Source: an uncultured Deferribacteres bacterium
GTDB lineage: Bacteria; Zhuqueibacterota; JdFR-76; DREG01
DNA: 51,009 nt
Direction: 5' to 3'
Assembly (NCBI GenBank): GCA_964464595.1
Contig: CAYXGW010000029.1
Span: 1 to 51,009 of the forward strand
Shown: piece after piece, positions 15,390 to 47,373 of the stretch
Layout: every line of letters begins with the position of its first letter
How positions within the stretch are numbered: the first letter of the stretch is position 1
The notes under the pieces: generated by a model
Database searches by the model: none
What the model saw: only the letters and a program-made list of their open reading frames with translations
What the model was told of the DNA's origin: nothing
Made by a program: the position numbers and the translations under genes

Positions 15390-15409
15390 TCGCTTTTCCA
15401 AAAATTAGT

Positions 15410-16288
15410 ATGATCCCTAAAGAAATACTTAAAAAAGTTAAGCGCATCGAAATTACAACCCGCGGTTTGGTAAATGATGTATTCTCCGGACAATACCATT
15501 CGGTATTCAAAGGAAGAGGGATGGATTTTACCGAAGTACGTGAGTACACTCCGGGTGATGACATACGTGTAATTGATTGGAACGTATCCGCACGAATGGG
15601 CCATCCTTTTGTTAAAGTATATGAAGAAGAGCGAGAATTAACGGTCATTTTAATGGTTGATGTCAGCTCATCTGGGAATTTTGGTACTTTTGAGCAAATG
15701 AAAGGTGAAATTGCAATTGAGATTTGTGCACTGCTGGCTTTTTCTGCAATTAAAAATAATGACAAAGTCGGTTTGATAATATTTACAGATGGAGTCGAAA
15801 AATTTGTAGCACCTAAAAAAGGCAAGAGTCATGTGCTTCGTGTGCTAAGAGAATTATTATTTCATAAACCCCAAAGTACAAAAACCGATATCGGTGGAGC
15901 CTTGGAATTTTTAAATCACATAGCAAAAAGAAGGAGTGTTGTTTTTTTGGTTTCAGATTTTATGTCAGAAGATTACAAAAAAGCGCTGCAAATAGCGAAT
16001 AAACGTCATGATGTAGTTGCAATCACAATCACAGATCCAAGAGAGACGGAATTGCCCGCAGTTGGATTTATCGAATTCGAAGATGCCGAAACCGGTGAGA
16101 TTTTCATGGTTGACACCAACAGTTCCGATATCCGTACCGGTTTCGTTCAAAAAGCGGATGCTCGCAAAATTGAACGTGAAAAACTATTTAAATCAATGAA
16201 TATCGACCATATAGATATTTTTACACATCAAGCTTACCCAGAGCCTTTAATGCGATTTTTTCGAATGCGAGCGAAACGGTTCAGATAG
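15410..16288 (+). CDS. DUF58 (vWA-like) protein, MoxR partner
   Basis: 'VREYTPGDDIRVIDWNVSAR', a DUF58 signature. Conserved gene order with moxR. Confidence 0.85.
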   Translation: MIPKEILKKVKRIEITTRGLVNDVFSGQYHSVFKGRGMDFTEVREYTPGDDIRVIDWNVSARMGHPFVKVYEEERELTVILMVDVSSSGNFGTFEQMKGEIAIEICALLAFSAIKNNDKVGLIIFTDGVEKFVAPKKGKSHVLRVLRELLFHKPQSTKTDIGGALEFLNHIAKRRSVVFLVSDFMSEDYKKALQIANKRHDVVAITITDPRETELPAVGFIEFEDAETGEIFMVDTNSSDIRTGFVQKADARKIEREKLFKSMNIDHIDIFTHQAYPEPLMRFFRMRAKRFR

Positions 16289-16317
16289 AAAAAACAAGAA
16301 TAGGAATATAAATAACA

Positions 16318-17244
16318 ATGAAATGGTGTAATTTGATTTTTTTCGTTATCTCTTTGGCGATTTTGACGGGTTGTAGTTCAAGTTCTCAACCGGATTTTAG
16401 TGCTGAAAAAATCCGGGAATTTGCCAATGAACTTTATAATCGACAGCTGTTTGAACAAGCAGTCGATCAATATCAGTTTTATCTCGAAAACTACAACCTG
16501 AAGCCAAAAGAGCAGGCGAATATTACCTATCAAATTGCTAATATTTATTTTGATCGCATGCGTGATTATAAAAATGCACTTGCACATTTTCTTAAAATCA
16601 AAACTTTATATCCGGAAAGCCCGCTTATTTCGGAAGTGAACAAAAAAGTCATCATCTGTTTAGAACGATTACAAAGACCCGCCGATGCTCAACAAGTGTT
16701 GAGGGAAAGCACATCGTTTGAAGGTCAGACCCGCAAAAGTCGCCCGGGAGAAGTCATAGCTAAGATTGGCAAGCGAGATATCACATTAGGAGACCTGGAT
16801 TTTGAGATCAGCAAATTGCCACCTGAGCTCCGGTCACAATATATCACGATTGATAATAAAATAGAATTTCTTCGCAGGTATTTGGCAACAGAATTATTGT
16901 ATGATTCTGCCAAACGACAGGGGCTCGAAAATGATGATCAGGTTTTGGAAAACGTTTTTCAAGCAAAAAAAACTTTTATGGTAACAAAGTTATTAGAAGA
17001 AGAAATCAGTAAAAAAGTAAAAATCACAGAAGATGATGTTAAACTTTATTATGATGCACATAAAAATGATTTTGCGGAAAAAGATGAAGATGGAAATGTG
17101 AAACGGATGTTGTCCTTTGAAGAAGCGGGTCAACAAGCAGCACAAAAATTAGCTTTTGAGCGACAAGAAAAAGCATATAATGAATTGATTTCCTCGTTAT
17201 TTCTAGCCGAAAAAGTCGTAATTTATGATGACCTGATAAAATAA
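16318..17244 (+). CDS. Lipoprotein with a TPR-like N-terminus and a SurA-N-like chaperone domain
   Basis: Lipobox 'ILTGC', then helical repeats. The C-terminal half has periplasmic-chaperone-like character. Confidence 0.45.
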   Translation: MKWCNLIFFVISLAILTGCSSSSQPDFSAEKIREFANELYNRQLFEQAVDQYQFYLENYNLKPKEQANITYQIANIYFDRMRDYKNALAHFLKIKTLYPESPLISEVNKKVIICLERLQRPADAQQVLRESTSFEGQTRKSRPGEVIAKIGKRDITLGDLDFEISKLPPELRSQYITIDNKIEFLRRYLATELLYDSAKRQGLENDDQVLENVFQAKKTFMVTKLLEEEISKKVKITEDDVKLYYDAHKNDFAEKDEDGNVKRMLSFEEAGQQAAQKLAFERQEKAYNELISSLFLAEKVVIYDDLIK

Positions 17245-17257
17245 ACCGGTAGATTAA

Positions 17258-18355
17258 ATGATGTTTGGTTACAAAAAAATTTATTTAATTTTAATTCTCA
17301 TTTATTTATTTATTTTCAATTTTGTTTCCGATGGATTCGGTCAGGGTAACATTTCGCTGTCTGCCAGTGTGGATAAAGCGACAATTACCATTGGTGATAT
17401 CATAACCTATTCAGTATCTGTTATACGAGATGAGGATGTATCTGTCGAACTTCCAAGCTTGGGTGGAAACCTGGGACAATTCGAAATTCGTGATTATAAC
17501 ATTTATGAACCTGAAAAAAAAGATGGCAAAATCATTGACCGGGTTGATTATACAATTTCGACCTTTGAGGTTGGTGAATTTGAGATACCACCGGTTGGTA
17601 TCAGGTATTTTATCCTACCGGATTCAACTGAACAAAGCCTCAAAACCGAAGTGATTAATATTACTGTAGAAAGTGTTAAACCCAGCGAAGAAGGCGATAT
17701 CCAAGATATTAAACCACCCTGGGAAATCTTATTCAATTGGAGGCCCATTATTATTGGCGGATCGATCGCATTAATTGTGATTCTACTAATAATCGGTTTG
17801 ACTATTTATTTGCGCAAGCGGAAAAAAGGCGAATCATTTTTGCCGAAAAAAATTGAAATACCCAGGCCTCCCCATGAAATTGCTTATGAAGAGCTTAAAA
17901 TATTACAAAATTCGGATCTTCTTAAACAGGGTCAAATCAAGCTTTATTATTCAGAAATATCGGAAATTATTCGGAAATATATTGAGGGGCGATTTCAAAT
18001 TATTTCGCTTGAACTAACTACTACAGAATTGATGATTGAACTTAATACTACAGATTTATCTTCAGAAAATGTATCACTTTTTGAAATGTTTTTTACCAAT
18101 TGCGACCTGGTTAAATTTGCAAAGTTTATTCCAGGTGATGAAGAAAATGATGAAATTATGAAGTCAGCTATTCGCATTTTAGATGAAACCAAATGGGTAG
18201 AGGAACTAATTTCGGAGCTGCAAGAAAAAACGACGGATGATGAAGTGAAAGTCGATGACAAAGATCAAATGAAAGATGAAAGGAATCAACATGCTGAAGT
18301 TGCAATTGTCACGGATGAAGAGCTTTCGTCAAATTTGAATAAGGAAGATAATTAG
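17258..18355 (+). CDS. BatD-like / Bat-operon membrane protein (signal, extracytoplasmic domain, one TM, cytoplasmic tail)
   Basis: 'ISLSASVDKATITIGDIITYSVSV...' resembles the BatD N-terminal domain. TM 'WRPIIIGGSIALIVILLIIGLTIYL' is followed by RKRKK. The gene sits between DUF58 and batA, where Bat operons carry a small membrane protein. Confidence 0.5.
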   Translation: MMFGYKKIYLILILIYLFIFNFVSDGFGQGNISLSASVDKATITIGDIITYSVSVIRDEDVSVELPSLGGNLGQFEIRDYNIYEPEKKDGKIIDRVDYTISTFEVGEFEIPPVGIRYFILPDSTEQSLKTEVINITVESVKPSEEGDIQDIKPPWEILFNWRPIIIGGSIALIVILLIIGLTIYLRKRKKGESFLPKKIEIPRPPHEIAYEELKILQNSDLLKQGQIKLYYSEISEIIRKYIEGRFQIISLELTTTELMIELNTTDLSSENVSLFEMFFTNCDLVKFAKFIPGDEENDEIMKSAIRILDETKWVEELISELQEKTTDDEVKVDDKDQMKDERNQHAEVAIVTDEELSSNLNKEDN

Positions 18356-19351
18356 ATGCTTTATCGATTAGCCGATCCATATTTTTTATTCTTATTGCTG
18401 TTTTTACCGGTATTGCTCTTTTTGCATTTCAAACGGCGCTCTCCACAAACTGTAACTTTGCAATATTCTAATTTAAATATCATTAAGTCTGCCGGCAAAT
18501 CTCGATGGTATTTTTATAGGCATATCTTATTTGGTCTTCGGCTGTTGGCAATGGGATTCATCATTATTGCTTTGGCAAGACCACAATCTGGCAGTAAGGA
18601 AGAGGAAATTACAACAGAAGGGATCGATATTATTTTGGCTTTGGATATTTCAAGTTCTATGCTGGCAGAAGACTTTAAGCCCAAAAATAGATTGGAAGTT
18701 GCAAAACTTGTCGCAGAGAATTTCGTAAAAGGTCGAACAAGCGATAGAATCGGTATGGTGGTTTTTGCCGGAGAAAGTTATACGCAATGTCCACTAACTT
18801 TAGACTATGGAATCTTGTTGAACTTTATAAGAGATGTAAAAATAGGTTTGGTTGAAGACGGCACTGCAATCGGCATGGCTGTTGCAAATGCCGTTAACCG
18901 CCTTCGTGATAGTAAAGCTAAGAGTAAAGTAATTATTCTATTAACTGATGGCCGCAACAATTCCGGCGAATTACACCCTTTATCGGCTGCACAAATTGCC
19001 AAAGCTTTAGATGTAAAGATTTACACCATTGGTGCAGGCAGCAAAGGTACTGCATTGTACCCAATTGTAGATCCCGTGTTTGGAAAAAGATATCAACGCT
19101 TGCCCGTTGAAATTGATGAGGACCTTTTACAAAAAATGGCATCTATGACAGGCGGGCAATATTTCAGAGCCATAGATAAAAGTTCTCTTGAGAAAATTTT
19201 TGATGAGATTGGTCAACTAGAAAAAACCAAGATTGAAGTTAAAGAATACACTCGTTATCGGGAATTGTTTTCAATTTTTCTTTCTGTAGGATTGATTTTG
19301 TTTGGGTTGGAAATGTTATTATCAAATACAAAATTCAAGAAAATACCATAA
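18356..19351 (+). CDS. batA: vWA-domain protein BatA
   Basis: Two N-terminal TMs and a vWA domain with MIDAS 'DIILALDISSSM'. Confidence 0.85.
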   Translation: MLYRLADPYFLFLLLFLPVLLFLHFKRRSPQTVTLQYSNLNIIKSAGKSRWYFYRHILFGLRLLAMGFIIIALARPQSGSKEEEITTEGIDIILALDISSSMLAEDFKPKNRLEVAKLVAENFVKGRTSDRIGMVVFAGESYTQCPLTLDYGILLNFIRDVKIGLVEDGTAIGMAVANAVNRLRDSKAKSKVIILLTDGRNNSGELHPLSAAQIAKALDVKIYTIGAGSKGTALYPIVDPVFGKRYQRLPVEIDEDLLQKMASMTGGQYFRAIDKSSLEKIFDEIGQLEKTKIEVKEYTRYRELFSIFLSVGLILFGLEMLLSNTKFKKIP

Positions 19352-19367
19352 GACTTTTAGGATTACA

Positions 19368-20399
19368 ATGTTTCGATTTGCAAGCGAACAATATTTATAT
19401 ACTCTTTTATTTGTTCCGGTACTGTTCCTGTTTTTTGTTTGGGTCCAAAAATCAAAAATGAAAGCCCTTGAGCGTTTCGGCAATATAAAATTGATGGATA
19501 AATTAATGTTGTCAAAAAGTCCAAAACGACAGAATTGGAAAAAAGCGCTTTTGATTCTATCATTATTTTTCTTTCTTGTTGCCCTTGCCCGGCCTCAAAT
19601 TGGGACAAAACTTGAAGAAGTAAAGCGCAGCGGAGTTGATATTTTTGTCGCGATTGACGTATCCAAATCGATGTTGGCGGAGGACATCAAACCCAACCGG
19701 TTGACCAAAGCAAAGCATGAAGTAGCAACACTTATACATCAACTGCGAGGAGATCGTATTGGGCTAATTGTGTTTGCCGGGGAAGCATTTGTCCAATGCC
19801 CGCTTACTTTAGATTATGGCGCGCTAAAAATTTTTCTGGATATTATCGAACCGGGATTAATTCCAAGGCCTGGTACGGCTATAGGCAAAGCAATAGAAAA
19901 ATCAATTGAATCATTTGTAGAGACTGAAAGAAAACATAAAGTATTGATTCTCATTACAGATGGAGAAGATACCGTAAAGGATCCTATGAAAGTTGCAGAG
20001 ATTGCAGAAAAAGAAGGTATCGTAATCTATACAGTAGGAATTGGTTCTTCACAAGGAGTTCCGATCCCTGAGTTTGATGGATCTGGAAAACAAGTGGGGT
20101 TTAAAAAAGACAAAAAAGGGAATGTGGTTACTTCTAAATTGGATCCACTCACTCTCGAAAAAATTGCACTTCAAACGAATGGTAAATATTATAATGCTAC
20201 ACCCGCGGAAATGGAACTTTCCAAAATCTATGAAGATATAGATAAAATGGATAAAAAGGAGTTATCGTCAAGAATATTTTCACAATACGAAGATCGATTT
20301 CAATACTTCTTAGCCATCGGCCTATTTTTGCTATTAGCTGATCTATTTATTCCGGAACGAAGAAAAGTAAAAACCGAGTGGAGAGGAAGGTTTGAGTAA
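19368..20399 (+). CDS. batB: vWA-domain protein BatB
   Basis: N-terminal TMs, MIDAS 'DIFVAIDVSKSM', C-terminal TM. The ATG at 19368 follows the batA stop at 19351. The ORF-track start at 19302 overlaps batA and was rejected. Confidence 0.85.
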   Translation: MFRFASEQYLYTLLFVPVLFLFFVWVQKSKMKALERFGNIKLMDKLMLSKSPKRQNWKKALLILSLFFFLVALARPQIGTKLEEVKRSGVDIFVAIDVSKSMLAEDIKPNRLTKAKHEVATLIHQLRGDRIGLIVFAGEAFVQCPLTLDYGALKIFLDIIEPGLIPRPGTAIGKAIEKSIESFVETERKHKVLILITDGEDTVKDPMKVAEIAEKEGIVIYTVGIGSSQGVPIPEFDGSGKQVGFKKDKKGNVVTSKLDPLTLEKIALQTNGKYYNATPAEMELSKIYEDIDKMDKKELSSRIFSQYEDRFQYFLAIGLFLLLADLFIPERRKVKTEWRGRFE

Positions 20400-20425
20400 A
20401 CTTATTCGACCAAATAGGTAATATT

Positions 20426-21148
20426 ATGAAATTGTTTAGATATACAACTGTTTTACTTGTTCTGATTTTACCAACTATTCTGTTTTCCCAATCTACCAGG
20501 GAAAGGGTAAAAAATGGTAATGAATTATTTGCTGATAAGAACTATGATCAGGCATTAAATAAATATCAAGATGCTCTTTTGTCAGATCCTGAGAATGATA
20601 GAATTCAATTCAATGTTGGCAATACATTATACAAAAAGAATAATTATGAAGATGCTTTGCAAGAATACCAAAAAGTTATGGGGAGTGAAGATTTGCAGCT
20701 AGAACAACAAGCATATTATAATGTTGGCAACACTCTATATAAACTTGGGAAATTACCTGAGAGTATTCTTGCTTATCAGCAAGCGTTAAAAATGAACCCT
20801 GACGATATCGATGCCAAATACAATTTAGAATATGTTCGCCGTAAATTAAAAGATAATAAAGATGAGCAGAACCAGGATCAACAGAACCAACAACAGCAAC
20901 AACAGCAAGACCAACAGAATCAGCAGCAACAACAAGGAGACGATGAGCAAGATCAGCAGCAACAAGAACAGCAAGGTGATGAGGAACAAGAGCAACAAGG
21001 TGAGCAACAAAACCAACAGAGCTCTGAACAATTGTCAAAAGAAGATGCCGAACGAATTTTAGATGCCTTAAAGAATGATGAAAAGGAGATTCAGAAAAAA
21101 CGGAAAGTTAAGAGTAAAGGGCGGTATCGGGTGGAAAAAGATTGGTGA
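20426..21148 (+). CDS. batC: TPR-repeat protein BatC with a Gln/Glu/Asp-rich low-complexity tail
   Basis: Signal peptide, three TPR units ('YDQALNKYQDALLSDPEND', 'YEDALQEYQKV', 'LPESILAYQQALKMNPDD'), then roughly 60 aa of poly-Q/E/D. Confidence 0.8.
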   Translation: MKLFRYTTVLLVLILPTILFSQSTRERVKNGNELFADKNYDQALNKYQDALLSDPENDRIQFNVGNTLYKKNNYEDALQEYQKVMGSEDLQLEQQAYYNVGNTLYKLGKLPESILAYQQALKMNPDDIDAKYNLEYVRRKLKDNKDEQNQDQQNQQQQQQQDQQNQQQQQGDDEQDQQQQEQQGDEEQEQQGEQQNQQSSEQLSKEDAERILDALKNDEKEIQKKRKVKSKGRYRVEKDW

Positions 21149-21152
21149 GAAA

Positions 21153-23036
21153 ATGACTTTTAATAAGAACATAAAAATCAAATTTCCAAATAAAAATTTA
21201 GATGCACTTTATTTTCTTGTTTTATTCTTTTTTACATTTCCACATTTTCTCTTTAGTCAGGATTTAACGCTGAAAACCTTAGTCGATCGCACGAAAGTAG
21301 CAACCAACCAACAATTCTCTTTAACAATTGAAATATCAGGAAAGGAAGCTCAATCCGTAGGAATTCCCAATCCACCGGATTTATCATCATTTGCCATTTT
21401 ATCCGGCAACTCAGGTACCACATCCAGTTTTCAGCTATTAAATGGCAGAATGTCAGTTTCAAAGAGTGCAACCTACAACTATATTGCGAGCACAGAAGGT
21501 GAATTTAATATTCCATCCATCTCGATTAATTTTAGCGGAAACACATATCGTTCAAGGCCAATTAAAATTGAAATCGTTAAGGGTACTACCCCGCCTTTAA
21601 CTGCTCGAAATCGGAGTTCAAGGAGTGGCGGTATTCAACCGGAAGGGGAGCTTGAAGGGAATTTGTATTTAGCCGCAGAAATCAATAAGAATACGGTTTT
21701 TAGAAATGAACCAATTGTCGTTACCTATAAAATTTATACCAGGGTTGAGGTGAGTAATTACAGCCTGATCAAATCGCCGGATCTGATCGGTTTTTGGACT
21801 GAAGATTTTGAGATTCCCAAGCAACCAAATACTTATGAAGAAATTATTGATGGTAAAAGATTTCTTGTAGCTGAAATCAAAAAGATTGCACTTTTTCCTA
21901 CCCAAACAGGGGAAAAAATTTTGGGGCCGATGGAAATAGATTGTGAAGTCCGGCTCAAAACACGAAGAAGAAGTCGTGATATTTTTGAGGATTTTTTTGA
22001 TAGTAGCAGTCTTTTTGGTCAAAGGGTTCGGACAACCATTACAAGTAAACCACTTAAAATTACGGTAAAACCCTTGCCTCTGGAGGGAAGACCTTCAGAT
22101 TTTAATGGTGTGGTTGGCAGTTTTAGTTGGAACGTATCTTTGGATAAGAATGAAGTATCCACCAACGAGGCGATTACTCTGAAGATGAAAATCAAAGGGA
22201 GAGGAAATATTAAAATATTGCCTGAGCCAAAATTTAAATTTCCTCAAGGGTTTGAAATGTATGAACCGGAAGTAAGCCAGAAAATAAATCGAACCGGTAA
22301 TGTAATAAGTGGTGAAAAAGTATACGAATATGTTTTTATTCCCAGGTTTGCAGGGACACACAGGATTAAGCCAATATCCTTTGTATATTTTGATCCAAAT
22401 TCTTTTTCTTATAAGAGGCTGGAAACACCTGAATTTGTAATCAAGGCCAAAGCTTCGACGGGAACGGGTGCGCCAATCACAAGCGGGTTAACTCGTGAAG
22501 AGATAAAATTCATAGGTAGGGATATTCGTTTTATTAAAGAAAGACCGGTTGAATTCCAGAAGATTGGCAATCATTTTCATAAATCATTTCTTTTTGGATT
22601 TTTAATTAGTATCCCCCTTGTTGCTTTTGGTGGCACATTATTATACCGCCAAAGGCAAGGAAAAATGGAAGTGAATGTCGCGTATGCAAGAAATCGGCGG
22701 GCGAATCAGATGGCGAAGAAAAAACTCGCAGGAGCCCACAAAATATTAAAACCCGATCACCAAAAAGAATTTTATGCTGAGATTTCAAAAGCTTTGCTTG
22801 GATTTATCTCTGACAAACTAAACCTATCAGCGGCTGGATTAAACAGTGATGAGGTTGAAGAAAAGCTGAAAGAAAGAAAAGTTAAAAAGGAAGTTGTTGC
22901 AGAGGTATTATCCATTGTTCAAGAGTGTGATTTCCAAAGATTTGCACCTTCGAATACTACGGTAGAAGATATGCAGCAATTCTATAATCGAGCGACTTCC
23001 GCAATATCTAACCTGGAAAAATCAGATCTTAGTTAA
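21153..23036 (+). CDS. batD: BatD (oxygen-tolerance) protein
   Basis: About 620 aa: signal peptide, large extracytoplasmic region, TM 'FLFGFLISIPLVAFGGTLLY', cytoplasmic C-terminus. Sits in the canonical batC-batD-batE position. The ATG at 21153 follows the batC stop. Confidence 0.8.
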   Translation: MTFNKNIKIKFPNKNLDALYFLVLFFFTFPHFLFSQDLTLKTLVDRTKVATNQQFSLTIEISGKEAQSVGIPNPPDLSSFAILSGNSGTTSSFQLLNGRMSVSKSATYNYIASTEGEFNIPSISINFSGNTYRSRPIKIEIVKGTTPPLTARNRSSRSGGIQPEGELEGNLYLAAEINKNTVFRNEPIVVTYKIYTRVEVSNYSLIKSPDLIGFWTEDFEIPKQPNTYEEIIDGKRFLVAEIKKIALFPTQTGEKILGPMEIDCEVRLKTRRRSRDIFEDFFDSSSLFGQRVRTTITSKPLKITVKPLPLEGRPSDFNGVVGSFSWNVSLDKNEVSTNEAITLKMKIKGRGNIKILPEPKFKFPQGFEMYEPEVSQKINRTGNVISGEKVYEYVFIPRFAGTHRIKPISFVYFDPNSFSYKRLETPEFVIKAKASTGTGAPITSGLTREEIKFIGRDIRFIKERPVEFQKIGNHFHKSFLFGFLISIPLVAFGGTLLYRQRQGKMEVNVAYARNRRANQMAKKKLAGAHKILKPDHQKEFYAEISKALLGFISDKLNLSAAGLNSDEVEEKLKERKVKKEVVAEVLSIVQECDFQRFAPSNTTVEDMQQFYNRATSAISNLEKSDLS

Positions 23037-33630: not shown

Positions 33631-33718
33631 TTTGTCAATTAAAACTTGACAAAGTAATATTTTTTTAATACGTTTTGGACAAATGTTCAACATAAGTGAA
33701 CATATGTTCAAATGAACA
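33631..33718 (+). promoter_or_regulatory. Candidate operator region of the DeoR/SorC regulator: two palindromic elements upstream of and overlapping its start codon
   Basis: TTTGTCAA-n7-TTGACAAA at 33631-33653. Alternating TGTTCA/TGAACA half-sites at 33684-33718, including the perfect palindrome TGAACAtaTGTTCA. Confidence 0.45.
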
Positions 33719-34677
33719 AAAATATAAATCAAACACACATGATAGTAGAAGCAGCTCAATTATATTACGAGCATCAATTTAGTCAACAATTGATATCAAA
33801 GAAGTTGGGTATCTCCCGCCCCGGGGTATCTCGACTTCTAAAGCAAGCTCGAGATAAAGGTATTGTTAAGATTGAAGTTATCGATCCAACAAAAAAAGGG
33901 ACTCGATTAGAAGCAAAATTAAAAGAAAAATTTGGATTAAAAAAAGTTATAGTTGTCCCAATCGATACAGATTCTTCCCAAAGTATTAAGCAGATGCTGG
34001 GTAATGCAGCAGTTAAAATTCTGGAAGTATTGGTTGAAGATAACATGATTTTGGGGGTGTCTTGGGGAACTACTATGCAAGAAGTTGCCCGGCAAGTAAA
34101 TGTGAAAATGTTTAAAGATTTAATTGTAGTTCAACTAAACGGTGGGGTTTCACGTGCCGAATATGATACTCATGCTAGTGAAATTGCCTTGAAGATTGGT
34201 GAAAAATTCCATGCAATTCCATTTTTGCTTCCCTTGCCAGCGATTGTTGATAGCCCGGAAGTTAAAAAGGCCATTGTATCAGACAAAAATATCGCTCGAA
34301 CTTTAGATTTAGCTAAACAAGCAAAAGTAGCAATATTTACAATTGGCTCATTTGGGTTAGAGTCAGTTTTGGTAAAGGCTGACTATTTCGAACAAGATGA
34401 GATAGATGCCTTATTGAAACAAAAGGCAATTGCGGATGTTTGCTCAAGAATTATAGACTCTGAAGGTAATTTATGTTCAAGTGAGCTTAACTCTCGTACA
34501 ATAGGCATTGAAATCGAGGAATTACAAAAAAAACCTTATTCAATCGCGGTTGCAGGTGGCAAAGAAAAATTAAATGCGATTCAAGCTGGTTTAAAAGGAA
34601 AAATTTTCAATATTCTAATAACAGATGAATGGGTTGCCAAAGAGCTTTTGGAAATTGATACCGACGAAAGATACTAA
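33712..34677 (+). CDS. SorC/DeoR-family sugar-phosphate-responsive transcriptional regulator
   Basis: N-terminal HTH 'LISKKLGISRPGVSRLLKQARDKGIVKI' and a C-terminal sugar-binding (SorC-like) domain. First gene of the BMC locus. Confidence 0.85.
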   Translation: MNKNINQTHMIVEAAQLYYEHQFSQQLISKKLGISRPGVSRLLKQARDKGIVKIEVIDPTKKGTRLEAKLKEKFGLKKVIVVPIDTDSSQSIKQMLGNAAVKILEVLVEDNMILGVSWGTTMQEVARQVNVKMFKDLIVVQLNGGVSRAEYDTHASEIALKIGEKFHAIPFLLPLPAIVDSPEVKKAIVSDKNIARTLDLAKQAKVAIFTIGSFGLESVLVKADYFEQDEIDALLKQKAIADVCSRIIDSEGNLCSSELNSRTIGIEIEELQKKPYSIAVAGGKEKLNAIQAGLKGKIFNILITDEWVAKELLEIDTDERY

Positions 34678-34686
34678 AAAAATAAA

Positions 34687-36093
34687 ATGACCGCAAAGAA
34701 AAATATTAACATTGCAATTGGTTCTGATCATGGTGGTTTTGATCTCAAAGAAAATTTAAAAATATTTTTATCTGAGAAAGGCTATCAATTTTCTGATTGT
34801 GGGACGGATAGTAAAGAATCAGTAGATTATCCAAAATTTGCCTATGCGGTTGCTAATAAAATTGCAAATGATGAAGTACATTTCGGCATTATGATAGATG
34901 GCGCTGGTATAGGCTCTGCTATAGCAGCAAATAAGGTTAAAGGAGTTCGTGCAGCATCTTGCTACAATGTTCAAACTGCAAAAAATGCGCGAGAACACAA
35001 TAATGCAAATATGCTCACTTTGGGAGGTGGTTTAATAGAACCAGGGTTGGCTAGGCAAATCGTTGAAATATTTTTAACTACAGATTGTACTATCGATAGA
35101 CATTTGCGCCGAGTGCAAATGATCAATGAATTAGATAATACAATGCCACCAAACAAGTTATTAAAAGATAATAGTCTAACAAACAAGGAGAAAACCTTGA
35201 TAAATATTTCTAGTGCAGATCTTGCTAGAATTGCTGAAAGAGTGGGTGAATTAATCGTAGGTTCCAGTGAGAGTACACAAGGCGCGAATTGTGGAACGGA
35301 TATGGTGTGCGCATGCGGTATGTGTGTAGAGCGAAAGCCTGAAACCATTCGTAAATTCCTCAATTCCGGAGTTGAAAGAATCGGTTATCATGATGGAACT
35401 GGCTGTGAATGTGTACCTCAAGACATCGCGCATTGTATCGATCACACCTTGCTGAAACCTGATGCCATGGAAAAAGATGTCATACAGCTTTGTAATGAAG
35501 CGAGAGAATACAATTTTGCTACTGTGTGCATTAGTCCAAGTTATGTTAGGTTAGCGGCAAAACATCTTGCAGGAACCCGGGTTAAAGTCTGTACCGTTGT
35601 GGGTTTCCCATCGGGTGCACATTTACCAGAAATTAAAGCAATGGAAACGAGACAAGCAATCCGCGACGGCGCTAGTGAGATTGATATGGTCATCAATATT
35701 GGCGCTTTAAAAAGTGGAAATGATGACCTAGTCTACCGGGATATTCGCATGGTTTGTGAAGCATGCGAAGATGGAGGTGTAATCAGTAAAGTTATTATAG
35801 AGGCGGCTCTGTTATCAGATGATGAAAAGCTTCGAGCTTGCAATTTGGCAAAGATAGCTCGTGCAAATTTTGTTAAGACCTCTACCGGTTTTGGACCTCA
35901 TGGGGCTACAGCTGAAGATGTTTCTCTTATGAGCAGGGTAGTGCAGCAGTCAGGAATTGAAGTAAAAGCTGCAGGAGGTATTCGCGATTTAGAATCAGCA
36001 AAAGAAATGATTGCAGCGGGTGCAACTAGAATTGGGGCAAGTGCAGGCATCAAAATCTTGCAAGAAGCTAAATCAATTACAGTATCAAATTGA
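34687..36093 (+). CDS. Bifunctional fusion: RpiB/LacAB-family sugar-phosphate isomerase (aa 1-150), Cys-rich linker with an amphipathic helix (aa 151-245), then deoxyribose-phosphate aldolase DeoC/DERA (aa 246-468)
   Basis: RpiB: 'NIAIGSDHGGFDL...DYPKFAYAVA...GIMIDGAGIGSAIAANK'. Linker: 'ADLARIAERVGELIV' and 'CGTDMVCACGMCVERK...GTGCEC'. DERA: 'HCIDHTLLKPDA...ATVCISP...VGFPSG...FVKTSTGF' (Schiff-base Lys). Confidence 0.85.
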   Translation: MTAKKNINIAIGSDHGGFDLKENLKIFLSEKGYQFSDCGTDSKESVDYPKFAYAVANKIANDEVHFGIMIDGAGIGSAIAANKVKGVRAASCYNVQTAKNAREHNNANMLTLGGGLIEPGLARQIVEIFLTTDCTIDRHLRRVQMINELDNTMPPNKLLKDNSLTNKEKTLINISSADLARIAERVGELIVGSSESTQGANCGTDMVCACGMCVERKPETIRKFLNSGVERIGYHDGTGCECVPQDIAHCIDHTLLKPDAMEKDVIQLCNEAREYNFATVCISPSYVRLAAKHLAGTRVKVCTVVGFPSGAHLPEIKAMETRQAIRDGASEIDMVINIGALKSGNDDLVYRDIRMVCEACEDGGVISKVIIEAALLSDDEKLRACNLAKIARANFVKTSTGFGPHGATAEDVSLMSRVVQQSGIEVKAAGGIRDLESAKEMIAAGATRIGASAGIKILQEAKSITVSN

Positions 36094-36168
36094 AACGGAA
36101 TAAACAAAAACTGGTAAGGTTTTTACGAATGAAATTCAGTAACAATAATAAAATGAGGAGACAATCAA

Positions 36169-36789
36169 GTGGTTGATCTAAGAGCTTACGTATTTTTAGA
36201 TAAACTGCAGCCACAATATGCTGCATTTTTAGGAACAATAGCTCAGGGATTTTTACCGATTGCGGGTATGGCATCTTTATATATCGAAATATCTCCTGGC
36301 ATCGAAATTAACCGGATCACCGACATCGCTCTAAAATCTACCAATGTAACTCCGGGTATGCAGATTGTAGAAAGATTGTATGGCATGTTGGAAATCCACT
36401 CGGAATCCCAAGCAGATGTTCGTCAAGCGGGAAGGGCAATTCTGGATGCGCTTGAATTGAATGAAGAGGATCGGTGGAAACCGAAGATATTTTCCAAACA
36501 GGTCATTCGACGAATAGATGATCACCAGACCCAATTAATCAATCGGATGCGGCATGGTAACATGATAGTTCCCGGTGAAACACTTTTCGTTATGGAGGTT
36601 CAACCGGCGGCTTACGCAGCCCTGGCAGCAAACGAAGCAGAAAAAGCTTCGGAAATTAATATCTTAGAAGTCCGGTCGTTCGGTAGTTTTGGAAGAATTT
36701 ATTTGGGCGGAGAAGAACGGGATATAGATGTTGGTTGGCGCGCTGCCGTAAGGGCAATTGAAGAAGTTACAGGTAAAGAAAAAGAATAA
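36169..36789 (+). CDS. BMC shell protein, tandem/permuted BMC-domain type (BMC-T, EutL/PduB-like)
   Basis: 206 aa. '[25 protein letters not shown]' is a permuted-BMC N-terminus and a second BMC-like repeat lies in the C-terminal half. The gene sits among shell genes. Confidence 0.6.
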
Positions 36790-36844
36790 TGATTGAAATT
36801 TAGAATTCTCGTATTTACACCAAAATTATCTGGAGGTAATTAAG

Positions 36845-37156
36845 ATGGCTGAAGCATTAGGAATGATAGAAACACGTAGTTACCCGGCAATGGTAGAAGC
36901 AGCAGATGCAATGGTAAAGGCTGCAAAAGTTGAATTAGTGGCATTTCAAAATACAGGTGGGGGCTATGTTACCGCAGTTGTGCGTGGCGATGTAGCGGCT
37001 GTGAAAGCAGCTTGCGACGCCGGCAGGGCAGGCTCTGCGCGAGTGGGTGAAATTGTAGCAGTTCATGTCATTGCACGTCCTCATAACAATGTGGATGAGG
37101 TTTTACCATTGGGCCGACAAGAAGAAAGCAAGTCTCCGTCCAAGACTAAAAAATAA
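36845..37156 (+). CDS. BMC-H hexameric shell protein (PduA/EutM/CcmK-like)
   Basis: '[58 protein letters not shown]' is the canonical Pfam BMC-domain consensus. Confidence 0.95.
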
Positions 37157-37168
37157 TAGGGAGGCACA

Positions 37169-37468
37169 ATGGTTCTCGCTAAAGTTGTGGGTACTGTAGT
37201 ATCCACGCGTAAAGAGGAAAGTATGGAAGGACTTAAATTCCTTATCTTACAGCAAGTTGATTTGGATGGTAATAATAGCGGAGGCATTGTTGTCGCCGCC
37301 GATGCGGTTGATGCGGGAGTTGGCGAATTGGTCCTTTATGCCAGCGGCAGTTCAGCTCGTCAAACCATAAAAACAGATAAACGCCCATGTGATGCGGTTG
37401 TTATGGCTATTGTGGATAATTGGGAAGTTGGTGGTAATATTAAATATAAAAAAGGCATTGATGATTAG
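37169..37468 (+). CDS. BMC-P pentameric vertex protein (EutN/CcmL/PduN family), paralog 1
   Basis: '[31 protein letters not shown]...[26 protein letters not shown]'. Confidence 0.9.
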
Positions 37469-37543
37469 TGTATTTTAGTATCCAGTTTTTAATGAAAATA
37501 GCGGTTAATGACAATGAACGAAAAATGTTTATGAAGGTGTAGT

Positions 37544-38998
37544 ATGTCACAGCTAACCCAAGAACAAGTAGATTTGATTGCTTCGCAAGTAGCAACCCTG
37601 ATAAAAGGCAAGCCCAATCAAACCACTTTGTCTCAAGCAACTTCTCACCAGACCTCAAATCCTCAGACCGCGAGTATGGGTGTATTTCCTGATATTGATT
37701 CAGCAGTGGCTGCAGCGAATCATGCTCATCTGCAATTGATGTCAATGACTCTACAAAAACGCAATGATATTATAGCGAGCATCCGAAAAAAAATGTTGGA
37801 GCACACTGAGGAATTGGCCAAACAAGCGCATGCAGAAACGGGGCTCGGAAGAGTTGAAGATAAAATTGCAAAAAATCGCTTAGTGACTGAAAAAACACCA
37901 GGTACAGAAGCCCTGGAACCAGTAGCTTATTCCGGAGATCGAGGATTAACTTTAATGGAGTTGGCTCCTTATGGTGTTATTGGAGTCATTACACCAACTA
38001 CTAATCCGACTTCAACGATTATCTGTAATACCATTGGCATGGTAGCGGCTGGCAACGCGGTTGTGTTTAATGTCCATCCTGGAGCAAAACAGGTAAGTGT
38101 TTACAACGTTGAGCTCTTAAATGAAGCTATAACAGAAGTCGGCGGACCTGCAAATTTGGTCACCACAATAGCTGATCCAACCATTGCAAGCGCTCAAGAG
38201 CTAATGACTCATAGTGGAGTTCGGCTATTGGTTGTTACCGGGGGCGCTGGTGTTGTCAAAGCAGCAATGACCAGTGGAAAACGGGCGATCTGTGCCGGGC
38301 CTGGAAATCCTCCCGTTGTAGTAGATGAAACTGCCGACATTGAAAAAGCTGCGAAGTCGATCATTGTTGGTGGGTCCATGGACAATAATATTATTTGTGT
38401 GGATGAAAAGGAAGTCTTCGTTGTTGAATCCGTAGCCGATCAATTAATTGCAGCCCTTGCGCAAGTAGATGCAATCATTTTAACTCCGGAGCAAGTTCAA
38501 CAAATAGAAAAAGTTATTTTTACAGAAAACCGTGGACCGGGCAAACCGGGAGTAATGTGTAAGGACTATATTGGGAAAAATATCAACATCATTCTTGCTA
38601 AAATTGGTTTGCAGGTAGAGAATAAAATTCGATTAGCCATAGCTCCTGTCCCTCAAGACCATCCTTTGGTGTGGAGTGAACAGATGATGCCAATTATGCC
38701 GGTAGTACGCATGCCAAATGTGGATGCGGCAATCGATATTGCAAAAGAAGCTGAGCATGACTTTCGCCATACTGCGGTCATGCATTCGCGGAATTTAGAT
38801 AACCTGAGCCGGATGGCGAAATTAATGAATTGTAGCATTTTTGTAAAAAATGGACCTTCCGTAGCGGGGCTTGGTTATGGTGGTGAAGGGTTTTGCTCAT
38901 TTTCCATAGCGAGTCCGACGGGAGAAGGCTTAACGAACCCAAGAAGTTTTTCAAGAGAAAGACGTTGTGTTTTGGTCGATCATTTTAGAATAGTATGA
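37544..38998 (+). CDS. CoA-acylating aldehyde dehydrogenase (PduP/EutE-like) with an N-terminal encapsulation-peptide-like amphipathic helix
   Basis: ALDH fold with catalytic Cys in 'ICVDEKE' and 'GPGNPPVVVDETAD'. The N-terminal 'LTQEQVDLIASQVATLIKG' amphipathic helix is followed by a polar linker. Confidence 0.85.
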   Translation: MSQLTQEQVDLIASQVATLIKGKPNQTTLSQATSHQTSNPQTASMGVFPDIDSAVAAANHAHLQLMSMTLQKRNDIIASIRKKMLEHTEELAKQAHAETGLGRVEDKIAKNRLVTEKTPGTEALEPVAYSGDRGLTLMELAPYGVIGVITPTTNPTSTIICNTIGMVAAGNAVVFNVHPGAKQVSVYNVELLNEAITEVGGPANLVTTIADPTIASAQELMTHSGVRLLVVTGGAGVVKAAMTSGKRAICAGPGNPPVVVDETADIEKAAKSIIVGGSMDNNIICVDEKEVFVVESVADQLIAALAQVDAIILTPEQVQQIEKVIFTENRGPGKPGVMCKDYIGKNINIILAKIGLQVENKIRLAIAPVPQDHPLVWSEQMMPIMPVVRMPNVDAAIDIAKEAEHDFRHTAVMHSRNLDNLSRMAKLMNCSIFVKNGPSVAGLGYGGEGFCSFSIASPTGEGLTNPRSFSRERRCVLVDHFRIV

Positions 38999-39002
38999 TA
39001 AT

Positions 39003-39614
39003 ATGATGAATAGATACCCGGCACTTGCCTTAATCGAATATTCTAGCATTGCAACCGGAATTTATTGCGGTGATGCAATGGTAAAACGTGCACCCATTAC
39101 AGTCCTCAAATCAGGAACAGTCCATCAAGGGAAATTTCTTGTGCTCATTGGCGGAAGTGTAGCTGCTGTTGAAGAATCCTACGAAGAAGGTCTTGCAATG
39201 GGTGGAGATTCTGTAATAGACAAAGTATTTCTACCATTTGTTCATACCCAGGTTCATGATGCAATTTTGGGAAAACGGCAGCCTTGTTCAAATGATGCTG
39301 TTGGAGTGATAGAAACAAACACCGTTGCTGCTACGATTCAATCGGCGGATGCTGGAGTAAAAGGCGCAGATGTAACTATTGTAGAAATCAGGTTGGCAGA
39401 TGACATTGGTGGAAAAGCAATAGCTGTTTTCAATGGAAAATTGGAAGAAGTAGAAGCCGCTGTCATGATTGCGAAAGACCAGGTCACAGAACAAGAACAT
39501 TGGCTTGGAGATGTAATAATTCCGAGAATACATGCTGAAATGGCTCATCAAATCGAACAGTCTACCAGTTTTGCTAATGTAGATCTCAATCAAGTTGAAG
39601 GGTTTGAGGTCTAA
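39003..39614 (+). CDS. BMC-T shell protein (two tandem BMC domains, PduT-like)
   Basis: Domain 1 'ALIEYSSIATGIYCGDAMVKRAPITVL...', domain 2 'VGVIETNTVAATIQSADAGVKGADVTIVEI...'. 203 aa. Confidence 0.8.
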   Translation: MMNRYPALALIEYSSIATGIYCGDAMVKRAPITVLKSGTVHQGKFLVLIGGSVAAVEESYEEGLAMGGDSVIDKVFLPFVHTQVHDAILGKRQPCSNDAVGVIETNTVAATIQSADAGVKGADVTIVEIRLADDIGGKAIAVFNGKLEEVEAAVMIAKDQVTEQEHWLGDVIIPRIHAEMAHQIEQSTSFANVDLNQVEGFEV

Positions 39615-39896
39615 ATGCTGCTTGGTAAAGTCATAGGAACATTAACGCCTTGCGTAGTTTATGAAGGACTGGAAGGTGTCCCATTGCTTTTAATTCAACC
39701 TCTCGATAAAAATAAAAACAAAACCGGCACACCACTTGTTGCTGCAGATTCAACCAGAATGGCAGGTCCTGATGAACTTATCTATTACGAAGGTGGAAGG
39801 GAAGCAGCGATGGCGTTGGAACCATGGTTTGTGCCTATAAACCATACAATTATCGGGATCGTTGATGGCGTTCATTTACTTGATTTGGAGGACTAA
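39615..39896 (+). CDS. BMC-P vertex protein, paralog 2
   Basis: 'MLLGKVIGTLTPCVVYEGLEGVPLLLIQPLD...PLVAADSTRMAGPDELIYYEGG'. The start abuts the upstream stop. Confidence 0.85.
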   Translation: MLLGKVIGTLTPCVVYEGLEGVPLLLIQPLDKNKNKTGTPLVAADSTRMAGPDELIYYEGGREAAMALEPWFVPINHTIIGIVDGVHLLDLED

Positions 39897-40190
39897 ATGA
39901 TTTTGGGCCGCATCAGCGGAGCTATTCATTCGACAATAAATCATGATTTTTATGACAACAAAAGACTTCTAATTGTTGACCTGCTAAACATTGACGGGAA
40001 GCCAACTGGCAAGTATTTAATCGCAGTTGATTCAGTAGATGCCGGCGTGGGTGAAACGGTGCTAGTGATAGACGAAGGCAATTCGGCCAGGCAGATCCTG
40101 GATGATGCACTGGCACCGATAAGATCTATTATCGTCGGCATTGTTGATGAAGTGCATTTACCAGGCATAATTAATTCTTTTAATTTGTAG
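39897..40190 (+). CDS. BMC-P vertex protein, paralog 3
   Basis: 'MILGRISGAIHSTINHDFYDNKRLLIVDL...YLIAVDSVDAGVGETVLVIDEGNSARQ'. The start abuts the upstream stop. Confidence 0.85.
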   Translation: MILGRISGAIHSTINHDFYDNKRLLIVDLLNIDGKPTGKYLIAVDSVDAGVGETVLVIDEGNSARQILDDALAPIRSIIVGIVDEVHLPGIINSFNL

Positions 40191-40495
40191 GACAAAATAT
40201 CTTGGTCAGATTATCACTTAACCTTTTATCAACTTCAACTAATGTGTAAAAACATTTATTAGCAATGGATCAAAATAGATTTTATATGAATTTCCCAAAA
40301 GACCAATTCATGTCATCCCGTCGTGGACGGAATCTCGTTAATAAACAACAACTTACGTTATGTCTAAGTAGATTCCTCCTGAATGACATTAGATGTTTAT
40401 TTGTGTTTTGTAGAAATATGTTATGTTTTCAGTCAGTCTCACATTTACCGGGGATCTATTTTATATCATGCTAACCTTGTTGAAAGATTACTAAA

Positions 40496-41143
40496 ATGTT
40501 TACAGATTGGGAAGCAAGGCGACAGATCGTCAGTTTTGGTAAAAAGACATATGAAAAGGGTTTGGTAGCCGCGACAGATGGTAATATTTCGGTCCGAATG
40601 ATGTCTGACCGATTCATGATAACACCCAGTGGAGTTCCTCTTTCGGATCTTGATTTAAATGATCTTGTCTATGTTAATTTAGACGGACAGGTTTTGCAGG
40701 GGCGAAAAAAGCCATCCTCCGAATTACCGATGCATCTGGAAATTTACCGGCAACGTCCCGAAATGAATGCAGTCATTCACGCCCATCCGCCCACAACTGT
40801 TGCATTTACAATAGCCGGGGAGACTTTTATTCAGCCGGTATTACCGGAACTTGTCGTTCTATTCGGTGAAATTCCCATCGCCACCTATGCTACTCCCGCC
40901 ACAGAAGAAAGCGCTAACTCCATTCGTGATTTAATTCCAAATAATGATGTAATTGTTTTAGATCACCATGGTGCCGTAACTGTAGGTAAGTCCCTGGATG
41001 ACGCCTTTGCAAAAATGGAAAAATTAGAGCATTCTTCAATCACGTTATTAGCAGCAAAACAAATTGGCCGCATCAATCCTTTAGAGCCTTCCGACGTCCG
41101 CAAACTTGAAAAGATGCGTAAAGAGAAGGGGTATAGCAATTAA
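40496..41143 (+). CDS. Class II aldolase/adducin-family protein (FucA/AraD-like)
   Basis: 'DGNISVRM...ITPSG...ELPMHLEIYRQRPEMNAVIHAHPP', metal-binding His cluster. Confidence 0.85.
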   Translation: MFTDWEARRQIVSFGKKTYEKGLVAATDGNISVRMMSDRFMITPSGVPLSDLDLNDLVYVNLDGQVLQGRKKPSSELPMHLEIYRQRPEMNAVIHAHPPTTVAFTIAGETFIQPVLPELVVLFGEIPIATYATPATEESANSIRDLIPNNDVIVLDHHGAVTVGKSLDDAFAKMEKLEHSSITLLAAKQIGRINPLEPSDVRKLEKMRKEKGYSN

Positions 41144-45646: not shown

Positions 45647-45732
45647 TTGTGTTTAAAGATAAAAAACATACTATTTTTGATAATTCCATTTTAATGATAT
45701 ATATTAAAAGCTAAAAGTTGAATGGATTTTTT

Positions 45733-47373
45733 ATGAAGCATAAAACCAAATTAACATTACTTTTTCTTTTCATTTTCTCATCCAATAATAATGCGCAGCA
45801 GAAGTCTACATGGGAAATTATACAAGATAAAATCTTAACGCCTACCTGTACGAGTTGTCATGTTGCAGGATCTTCTTTTGCCATTCAATCCGGGTTGGTT
45901 TTAACCAAGGATGTTGCTTATAAAAATATAGCAAATCGCACGCCTAACAATGAAGCAGCAAGGAGCGATGGATTATTGCTGGTGGGTAATAAAGGGCTGG
46001 AAAGTCTTTATAAAAGCTATTTGTGGGAAAAAATTGATGCTATCGATCAGGAACATTTTTATTCGGATCATCCGTACTATGGTTCCTTAATGCCTTTGGG
46101 GGCGCCACCTCTTACAAATGGACAATTAAAATTTATAAGAGAATGGATACTTGCCGGAATCCCTGAAACCGGAATTGTGGCAGATGAATCCATTCTTGAA
46201 GATATGAGTCGATTTGAAATTCCTGAGTTCCAGGCATTGGCAGCACCTGAACACGGTGTGCAACTTCATCTTGGCCCTTTCGACGTTCAAACCAATTTTG
46301 AAAGAGAATTTTTTTATTACCTGCCGCTGAATAATAATGAGGAGATTTTTATAAATCGTATTGAAATAAATATGCGGCGAGGTAGCCATCATTTTATTGC
46401 ATATCAATTTAATTCTGAAATCCCTGATTATTTAATCCCCCAGGCGAATGTTATTCGAGATATTCGTAACAGTGACGGAAGCTATAATATTTTAAATTTA
46501 TTAGCCACGCCATTTCATACTTTTGTTACTGGTACGCAATGGCCAATCTTGAATTATCATTTACCCCCGGGGGTAGCCTTAAGACTACCGGCCAATATCG
46601 GATTGGATCTAAATCTACACTACGTAAATAGAACTGATGAGATCATGCAAGGTGAAATATATGCAAATTTACACTTTGTAGAACCTCAGAATGTTGTTCA
46701 TGAAGCAAAGGCACTTAATCTTGGGAAATTTGATATAGAACTTCCCCCTCACCAAGTTACTACTTTAACTAAAACATTTACATTTTGGGAGACTAGACAT
46801 ATCTTCCAGCTATTTTCTCATGCACATGAGCATATGACAGAATTTAGAGTTGAGATTGATGGAGGTCCTAGGAATGGAGAGCTTGTCTATATCACTTACG
46901 ATTGGGAACACCCGCCTATTCTGGAATTAGATCCCCCATTAGTCATAGAAGAAGGCCAGGGTTTAAAACTAATCACAACGTATAATAATTGGACAGATCG
47001 TACTTTAAATTTTGGCTTGCGTAGTGATGATGAAATGATGATTCTGTTTGGGGCATATTACTTGAAAAAGGCCACGGGTGTTGATGATAATGAGCGAGGT
47101 AACCTGCCTGAAGTTTTTACCTTGGAGCAGAATTATCCAAACCCATTTAATCCACAAACTACGATCAGTTACAAATTGCCTCAACAAACTCAGGTCAATT
47201 TGGCTATTTATGATATAACAGGGAGAGTGGTTGAACAATTATTTGATGGTACCCAGCCTGCGGGAATCCATCAAATCATTTGGAACGCAAATGGCGCCCC
47301 ATCTGGCATGTATATTGTTAGAATTAAAACGGATAGTTTTCAGTCTATGCGGAAAATGCTGTACTTGAAGTAA
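45733..47373 (+). CDS. Secreted PHM/DBH-like copper type II monooxygenase fold, fused to an N-terminal mono-haem cytochrome c domain and a C-terminal T9SS sorting domain
   Basis: Signal peptide. 'CTSCH' haem-c motif with downstream 'SLMPLG'. 'GSHHFIAY' (HH), 'LHYV', 'HAHEHM' (HxH), 'SDDEMMILFGAYY' (Met-ligand region). T9SS CTD 'NYPNPFNPQTTISY...GMYIVRIKT'. Confidence 0.6.
   Translation: MKHKTKLTLLFLFIFSSNNNAQQKSTWEIIQDKILTPTCTSCHVAGSSFAIQSGLVLTKDVAYKNIANRTPNNEAARSDGLLLVGNKGLESLYKSYLWEKIDAIDQEHFYSDHPYYGSLMPLGAPPLTNGQLKFIREWILAGIPETGIVADESILEDMSRFEIPEFQALAAPEHGVQLHLGPFDVQTNFEREFFYYLPLNNNEEIFINRIEINMRRGSHHFIAYQFNSEIPDYLIPQANVIRDIRNSDGSYNILNLLATPFHTFVTGTQWPILNYHLPPGVALRLPANIGLDLNLHYVNRTDEIMQGEIYANLHFVEPQNVVHEAKALNLGKFDIELPPHQVTTLTKTFTFWETRHIFQLFSHAHEHMTEFRVEIDGGPRNGELVYITYDWEHPPILELDPPLVIEEGQGLKLITTYNNWTDRTLNFGLRSDDEMMILFGAYYLKKATGVDDNERGNLPEVFTLEQNYPNPFNPQTTISYKLPQQTQVNLAIYDITGRVVEQLFDGTQPAGIHQIIWNANGAPSGMYIVRIKTDSFQSMRKMLYLK

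Follow-up and report, generated by a model that had tools for sequence, protein, structure and literature searches.

A putative secreted monooxygenase of the PHM/DBH fold with an N-terminal c-type cytochrome-like domain in an uncultured KSB1-like bacterium

The gene at 45733-47373 and its product

We analysed 51,009 nucleotides of DNA from an uncultured Deferribacteres bacterium (assembly GCA_964464595.1, contig CAYXGW010000029.1, positions 1 to 51,009 of the forward strand); this whole stretch is called the window. The gene under study lies at 45733-47373. Its product had been predicted from the letters of the DNA to be a copper monooxygenase related to peptidylglycine alpha-hydroxylating monooxygenase (PHM) and dopamine beta-hydroxylase (DBH), fused to a cytochrome c domain and to a sorting domain of the type IX secretion system (T9SS). 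The open reading frame (ORF) was confirmed to consist of four parts, namely a signal peptide, a c-type cytochrome-like domain, a two-domain core with the PHM/DBH fold and a type A T9SS tail. The features are collected in Table 1. On balance, we favour the reading that the protein is a secreted two-copper monooxygenase of the PHM/DBH type, to which electrons would be delivered via its own c-type haem.

An alternative TTG start, at 45718, is present upstream of the ATG in the ORF list. Public protein P0001 is identical to the 546-aa product. For a relative with 93% identity, the NCBI name says no more than 'T9SS type A sorting domain-containing protein [candidate division KSB1 bacterium]'. A promoter and terminator scan gave matches that were no commoner than in shuffled sequence.

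Table 1. Features of the gene at 45733-47373 (positions in the window; pLDDT, predicted local distance difference test)
Feature	Residues	Coordinates	Strand	Remarks
Whole gene	1-546	45733..47373	+	546-aa precursor plus stop; single ORF, ATG at 45733
Sec signal peptide	1-21	45733..45795	+	MKHKTKLTLLFLFIFSSNNNA followed by QQ; read from the sequence, putative cleavage site
c-type cytochrome-like domain	~25-150	45805..46182	+	all-helical
CTSCH haem c attachment motif	39-43	45847..45861	+	C39, C42, H43
M120-P121	120-121	46090..46095	+	candidate distal haem ligand
Short conserved linker between haem domain and copper core	151-165	46183..46227	+	
PHM-like N-terminal beta-sandwich with CuH-type site		46228..46677	+	H219, H220 (nt 46387-46392), H296 (nt 46618-46620)
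PHM-like C-terminal beta-sandwich with CuM-type site		46678..47070	+	H363, H365 (nt 46819-46827), M435 in DEMM (nt 47029-47040)
Flexible linker	447-467	47071..47133	+	pLDDT <50 at residues 449-457; alignment not conserved there
T9SS type A C-terminal sorting domain	468-546	47134..47370	+	

Both ends of the precursor carry export signals. Read directly from the sequence, the signal peptide begins with basic residues, continues into a hydrophobic core and has a small residue at position -1. The type A sorting domain expected at the other end scored above the curated cut-offs of both PF18962 (43.2 bits, cut-off 27) and TIGR04183 (50.2 bits, cut-off 23), with matches covering residues 468-542 of 546. 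This tail is found in 49 of 75 close homologues, and the homologues that lack it have a lipobox cysteine at the place equivalent to the signal-peptide cleavage. Judging from these signals, all forms of the family are extracytoplasmic. A second protein of the window (120-1847), which contains Big_5 Ig-like domains, has a related T9SS C-terminal sorting domain (E 5e-19 with a profile of the homologues' tails).

The core shares fold and copper-ligand register with PHM

The centre of the window protein contains two consecutive jelly-roll beta-sandwich domains, as in the PHM fold. Enzymes of the PHM/DBH superfamily hold two coppers about 11 Å apart and consume O2 and two electrons per hydroxylation. 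In the fold comparison PHM was the best structural match, and the histidines and the methionine of the core were placed on the PHM copper ligands.

For the profile comparison, a diverse family alignment of 53 sequences with identity down to 25% (A3) was aligned to the catalytic core of rat PHM. The rat sequence was verified against PDB 4e4z and the PHM numbering was checked. The hhalign run gave a probability of 97.3% and an E value of 2.2e-11 over 246 columns that span both sandwiches, with all six copper ligands in register. H219, H220 and H296 were aligned to H107, H108 and H172 of PHM, which are its CuH ligands (PMC6123673). H363, H365 and M435 were aligned to H242, H244 and M314, with the same 70-residue spacing between HxH and methionine. 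The SDDEMM stretch of the window protein, whose DEMM corresponds to residues 433-436, was aligned to SSDEMC of PHM. H242, H244 and M314 are the established CuM ligands of PHM. Thus, the HH...H / HxH...M pattern proposed at the outset maps onto the PHM ligands by both hhalign and fold, and the likeness of 'DEMM' to 'DEMC' is upheld by the alignment. The diverse alignment was required for this result; with a shallow one (A2), hhalign gave a probability of only 3.6% for PHM.

Conservation in the core was counted in 223 core-covering sequences with identity down to about 25%. The six ligand positions are the most conserved columns. On the CuH side the HH pair is kept in 221 of 223 and H296 in all 223, and on the CuM side H363 is kept in 222, H365 in 223 and M435 in 213. 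In six of the 223 members a histidine replaces the methionine ligand at the equivalent of residue 435, which would give a CuM-type site with three histidines.

Curated models recognise the core poorly. A check with PF01082, PF03712 and cytochrome c models had been proposed together with the original prediction, and none of them scored above threshold on the window protein. PF03712 (Cu2_monoox_C) reached 13.7 bits (cut-off 23, E 0.044) and PF01082 gave no match. PF03712 matches 73 of 75 close homologues with a best E value of 2e-7, and two distant relatives found by the exhaustive phmmer search, P0190 and P0206, pass its gathering score with 33.9 and 38.0 bits. There was no NCBIfam model for the core, either in the window protein or in seven relatives. 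PHM was not reached when the family profile was searched against PDB sequences. Taken together, a two-sandwich core with PHM fold and copper-ligand register is strongly supported by the fold, profile and Pfam comparisons, which are three independent lines, and both sites would be expected to be occupied by copper.

E434, N294 (Q170 in PHM) and the DEM motif are conserved across phyla along with both copper sites, at an overall identity of 50-64%. This fits a constrained active site and speaks against a non-catalytic surface protein that binds, buffers or senses copper or redox state and uses the PHM fold as a scaffold. A protein of that kind would agree with the solitary position of the gene among housekeeping genes, where we found no substrate clue and no operon partner. 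However, a simple binder would have no use for a haem partner of its own, retained both fused and split (see below), and we regard such a role as very unlikely.

The N-terminal domain has the marks of a c-type haem module

Conservation of the N-terminal domain (N-domain) was counted in the 197 relatives that have it. C39, C42 and H43 of the CTSCH motif are kept in 196, 194 and 195 of these, M120 in 194 and P121 in 195. Accordingly, the CxxCH motif with a distal MP, named in the original prediction, is present and conserved. The two cysteines of CTSCH are the only cysteines of the window protein. A check of all six frames of the window, covering ORFs of 80 aa or more, gave no other ORF with a CxxCH. 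One fused homologue has lost the second cysteine of the motif and reads CxxGH.

Modelled alone, the N-domain forms a confident helical bundle (pLDDT 91.5). Its top fold matches are all haem c proteins, the closest being FoxE. A motif MP(L)G...WIxxGAP is common to the N-domain, to FoxE (MPLG...IKEWILAGAP) and to the stand-alone cytochromes described below. When the N-domain profile was searched against PDB sequences, FoxE alone was returned, with a non-significant E value of 0.93, which serves as corroboration only. Sub-threshold matches to Pfam CTI, Cytochrom_C550, Cytochrome_CBB3 and PSCyt1 and to NCBIfam TIGR03806 were obtained for some members and relatives. A weak Pfam match to the haem-bearing N-terminus of fatty-acid cis/trans isomerase occurs in 71 of 75 members, and relatives gave weak matches to Cytochrome_CBB3, PSCyt1, PccH and a di-haem family. 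These data are consistent with a c-type haem module, in which the haem would be bound covalently and, by canonical expectation, M120 would act as the distal ligand.

The linker that joins the N-domain to the copper core (residues 151-165) has a pLDDT of 85-92 in the full model, and D157 and R160 are nearly invariant. Since it is short, conserved and confidently modelled, the model suggests that haem and copper domains are held in a fixed arrangement rather than on a floppy tether.

Haem and copper modules occur fused and as separate genes

About 10% of the family lack the N-domain. These members are lipoproteins of ~312 aa that keep all six copper ligands. A follow-up metagenome scan (alignment A6) returned mostly fused proteins, so that 12 truly domain-less loci with flanks were available. 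They were searched with the N-domain profile by hmmsearch. In five of the 12 (L086, L089, L092, L096 and L097), a stand-alone lipoprotein homologous to the N-domain is encoded immediately upstream on the same strand. These stand-alone cytochromes have roughly 155-165 aa, were detected with E values of 1e-14 to 1e-26 and carry CTSCH or CX4CH (CALSGCH, CGVNGCH) together with the MP...WIAxGAP motif. CX4CH is a known variant of the haem c motif; the partners with this variant lie at 2523-2996 in L086, 3438-3956 in L089 and 3389-3919 in L092. In L093 and L095, a 108-aa lipoprotein cytochrome (CISCH...NPMP; Cytochrome_CBB3 E 3e-5) is encoded two genes downstream. In all, seven of the 12 loci thus have a separate cytochrome lipoprotein gene in the cluster.

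The linkage of the haem and copper modules is strongly supported, since the same pair occurs fused, adjacent or nearby. Such a pattern is classic evidence for joint action, obtained here from a small sample. The linkage says nothing on the direction of electron flow.

We also considered that the N-domain is not a redox module, either because the haem was lost or never present or because the domain is a lid with a structural or substrate-binding role. A small molecule would then reduce the copper core, as in animals. Such a reading has difficulty with the near-invariant CxxCH and M120 and with the fact that the cysteines of the motif are the only ones in the protein, which are hard to explain without haem attachment. 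Furthermore, the stand-alone versions keep CxxCH or CX4CH, and the fold matches named above are all haem c proteins. We therefore consider it unlikely.

Six loci with a domain-less PHM-like gene (L087, L089, L092, L093, L094 and L095) share another gene, which lies just downstream of it. It codes for a protein of ~200 aa (24-44% identity) that resembles a small outer-membrane beta-barrel, with a C-terminal aromatic residue and a weak MipA match. The result is a cassette of cytochrome, PHM-like gene and barrel. No homologue of the barrel protein was found in the window.

Proposed reaction and substrate

In the mechanism that we propose, the precursor would be exported by Sec, and haem would be attached covalently to C39 and C42 in the periplasm. 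Two coppers would be loaded, one into the CuH-type site (H219, H220, H296) and one into the CuM-type site (H363, H365, M435). The C-terminal domain would then send the folded protein through the T9SS to the cell surface or the medium in this KSB1-like organism; other lineages have this core as a lipoprotein. The haem domain would take single electrons from an external or periplasmic donor and pass them to the CuH-type site, filling the role that ascorbate has in the animal enzymes. The CuM-type site would bind O2 and hydroxylate a C-H bond of the substrate. What we infer here is the occupancy by haem and copper, the direction in which electrons flow, the monooxygenase chemistry and the substrate class. 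The idea of haem as ascorbate substitute is not proven. An independent argument in its favour is that domain-less members can have the haem domain as a separate gene next to them.

Electrons may also run the opposite way. The copper core would then oxidise its substrate as an oxidase or dehydrogenase, and the haem would pass the electrons on to periplasmic or surface carriers, thereby feeding respiration. The closest structural match of the haem domain, FoxE, is an electron-harvesting Fe(II) oxidase (PMC10654088), and the hosts come mostly from sediments and low-oxygen water; the linkage of the fused and split forms, being silent on direction, is equally compatible with it. In contrast, the complete set of three histidines plus two histidines and a methionine is a signature of O2-activating PHM/DBH chemistry. 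This chemistry consumes two external electrons per turnover, and we know of no PHM-fold enzyme that works as a dehydrogenase. Reverse flow is rather unlikely on this evidence.

With PHM as best structural match, and with peptidases or amidases (M1, M16, S9-type, penicillin amidase) adjoining the gene in several lineages, a true peptidylglycine alpha-hydroxylating enzyme had to be weighed, that is, a bacterial peptide amidase acting on peptides that the M1 enzyme at 47622 or other peptidases encoded nearby release. R240, N316 and Y318 of PHM bind the carboxylate and backbone of the substrate glycine. In the hhalign alignment these anchors fall on F361, I437 and F439 of the window protein. Within the family, residue 361 varies among F, T, S, V and M; Arg occurs there in none of the 223 sequences. 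Moreover, we saw no partner of the lyase (PAL) type, an M1-like gene adjoins the homologue in just two of 83 loci (see below) and no neighbour family is conserved across phyla. Peptidyl-glycine specificity was rejected on the substrate-binding residues, and a peptide amidase is highly improbable. Based on the residues compared, the window protein is probably not a peptide amidase. Since hydrophobic residues stand in place of the carboxylate-binding residues of PHM, the substrate is more likely to be neutral or hydrophobic.

Extending the haem-driven monooxygenase proposal to the whole family is more tentative. Possibly, the family is an ascorbate-independent bacterial branch of PHM/DBH enzymes in several phyla, in which extracytoplasmic, O2-dependent C-H hydroxylation of a non-peptide, probably hydrophobic substrate is driven by a dedicated c-type haem, either fused or encoded by an adjacent gene. 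If true, a class of haem-copper monooxygenases that had gone unrecognised would take part in marine organic-matter turnover, with a FoxE-like haem possibly drawing electrons from external donors. The family would also be a candidate prokaryotic root of the animal amidating and catecholamine-forming enzymes.

Several results weigh against a haem-fed monooxygenase. A Foldseek search of the PDB with the N-domain returned nothing meaningful and no cytochrome, and no curated cytochrome c model, including class I Pfam, reaches threshold. In a FoxE homologue, the corresponding methionine, that of MPLG, is a ligand of the second haem and not of the haem at its own CxxCH (PMC10654088), which makes the assignment of M120 as distal ligand uncertain. 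Five of the 12 domain-less loci lack a cytochrome gene within 4 kb. For a T9SS cargo that is exposed on the surface or released, the supply of electrons is a difficulty of the model. Unbiased clustering of the neighbours in 84 loci revealed no family common across phyla, and thus no pointer to the substrate. Finally, we found no publication on bacterial PHM-fold enzymes or on the cytochrome-fused form in a literature coverage that was partial, so that earlier reports are possible.

Distribution of the family

The exhaustive search returned 1,788 clusters (50% identity) at E ≤ 1e-3, and a scan with one genome per species returned 235 relatives. These relatives belong to Marinimicrobia, KSB1, Calditrichia, Gemmatimonadota, Cytophagales, Rhodothermia, Latescibacterota, Verrucomicrobiota and Planctomycetota. 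The Cytophagales carriers include the cultured Ekhidna lutea DSM 19307, whose homologue lies at 7905-9263 in L064. Hosts are mostly marine bacteria, and relatives across phyla are 47-64% identical to the window protein. Public annotation calls the family 'hypothetical' or 'T9SS sorting domain-containing protein' only. In a survey from 2022, PHM is described as the clan's eukaryotic member (PMC8812541). Each component is known by itself, and there are precedents for the logic of the fusion; yet this is a large, conserved and unannotated enzyme family.

Other architectures were observed as well. Six relatives of about 785-826 aa (P0043, P0045, P0057, P0061, P0062 and P0076) have an extra segment of ~260 residues between core and T9SS tail. 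N-terminal additions are found in P0140 (DUF5648) and P0212 (PD40/FG-GAP/TSP3 repeats).

Comparison with known systems

PHM, DBH and tyramine beta-monooxygenase are textbook copper enzymes that have been studied almost only in animals, and it is still debated how electrons reach and cross the two distant copper sites. The window protein is about 15% identical to PHM, the catalytic core of PAM (PDB 1SDW/1PHM). It differs from PHM in being bacterial, in its haem domain and T9SS tail and in lacking a PAL partner; with its sole cysteines in CxxCH, it cannot form any of the PHM disulfides. Compared with DBH, tyramine beta-monooxygenase and MOXD1 (PDB 4ZEL), the accessory domain is an unrelated all-helical c-type cytochrome module with a predicted covalent haem. 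The window protein lacks a dimerisation domain, and conservation does not extend to the substrate pocket.

Precedents for the fusion exist in other folds. In cytochrome c-tethered copper nitrite reductases, for example RpNiR of Ralstonia pickettii, a c-type cytochrome is the built-in electron donor (PMC7201279, PMC6038957). As in the family described here, the cytochrome is fused to a copper enzyme, and related organisms have it as a separate partner. However, the cupredoxin trimer fold and the nitrite reduction are unrelated, and the cytochrome is C-terminal there and N-terminal here. The X183 cytochrome domain of Cellvibrio japonicus Cbp2D reduces lytic polysaccharide monooxygenases (LPMOs) (PMC8981238). 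It likewise is a secreted bacterial c-type cytochrome module that feeds a secreted copper monooxygenase outside the cytoplasm, as is proposed here. In contrast, an LPMO has a single histidine-brace copper and an unrelated fold, and the cytochrome resides on a separate multi-domain protein. Among the N-terminal haem c modules of FoxE, PccH, PSCyt1 and CTI, FoxE is a di-haem enzyme whose motif methionine serves the second haem. We know of no case in which one of these modules is joined to a domain of the PHM fold.

A bacterial version with a covalent, spectroscopically visible haem donor could be expressed in bacteria, and electron transfer could be triggered and followed directly. The family also bears on the origin of the eukaryotic PHM-type enzymes. 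Because an abundant family is annotated as 'hypothetical' or by its T9SS tail only, metabolic reconstructions may overlook an oxidative activity of these common and mostly uncultured heterotrophs.

Genomic surroundings

The genes around 45733-47373 are unrelated housekeeping genes. Upstream are Fpg, Ogt, a macro-domain protein and an FG-GAP protein; downstream are the M1 peptidase at 47622 and a membrane protein. A conserved neighbourhood with the M1 peptidase, raised in the original prediction, could not be maintained. A tblastn search against 83 loci found an M1-like gene in two and the FG-GAP protein and the downstream membrane protein in none, and a conserved link to any of the three was rejected. 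The gene downstream of the KSB1 homologue is unrelated to the one downstream in the window. Synteny with amidohydrolase, Exo_endo_phos and isochorismatase-like genes in loci labelled Latescibacterota or Gemmatimonadota looks lineage-specific.

An S9-type peptidase of ~1010 aa adjoins the homologue in ten loci (L026-L031, L035, L039, L054 and L056), and an M16 peptidase does so in a KSB1 genome (L001, 5022-7769). Penicillin amidase genes adjoin it in L003 (5029-7182), a related contig, and in Ekhidna lutea (L064, 5693-7858). As the host genomes are rich in peptidases, these recurring neighbours could be due to chance and are a weak hint at most.

The apparent second-largest neighbour cluster consists of antisense ORFs within the gene itself. 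Such ORFs, of 77-204 aa, occur on the minus strand inside 45733-47373 and in ~40 related loci. A second gene was rejected, and the cluster is regarded as a by-product of strong coding-strand conservation.

Further upstream in the window are a bacterial microcompartment (BMC) locus, Bat genes, DnaK and ClpB. The BMC locus (34687-41143) comprises an RpiB-DeoC fusion (34687-36093), BMC-domain shell proteins (36169-36789 and 39003-39614), an aldehyde dehydrogenase (37544-38998) and a class II aldolase (40496-41143). It is preceded by a DeoR/SorC-type sugar-binding regulator (33712-34677). A same-strand run of genes at 14397-23036 ends in a BatD-domain protein (21075-23036), suggesting an operon of the Bat aerotolerance type. 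DnaK (7993-9915) and ClpB (10038-12650) are encoded upstream of this run.

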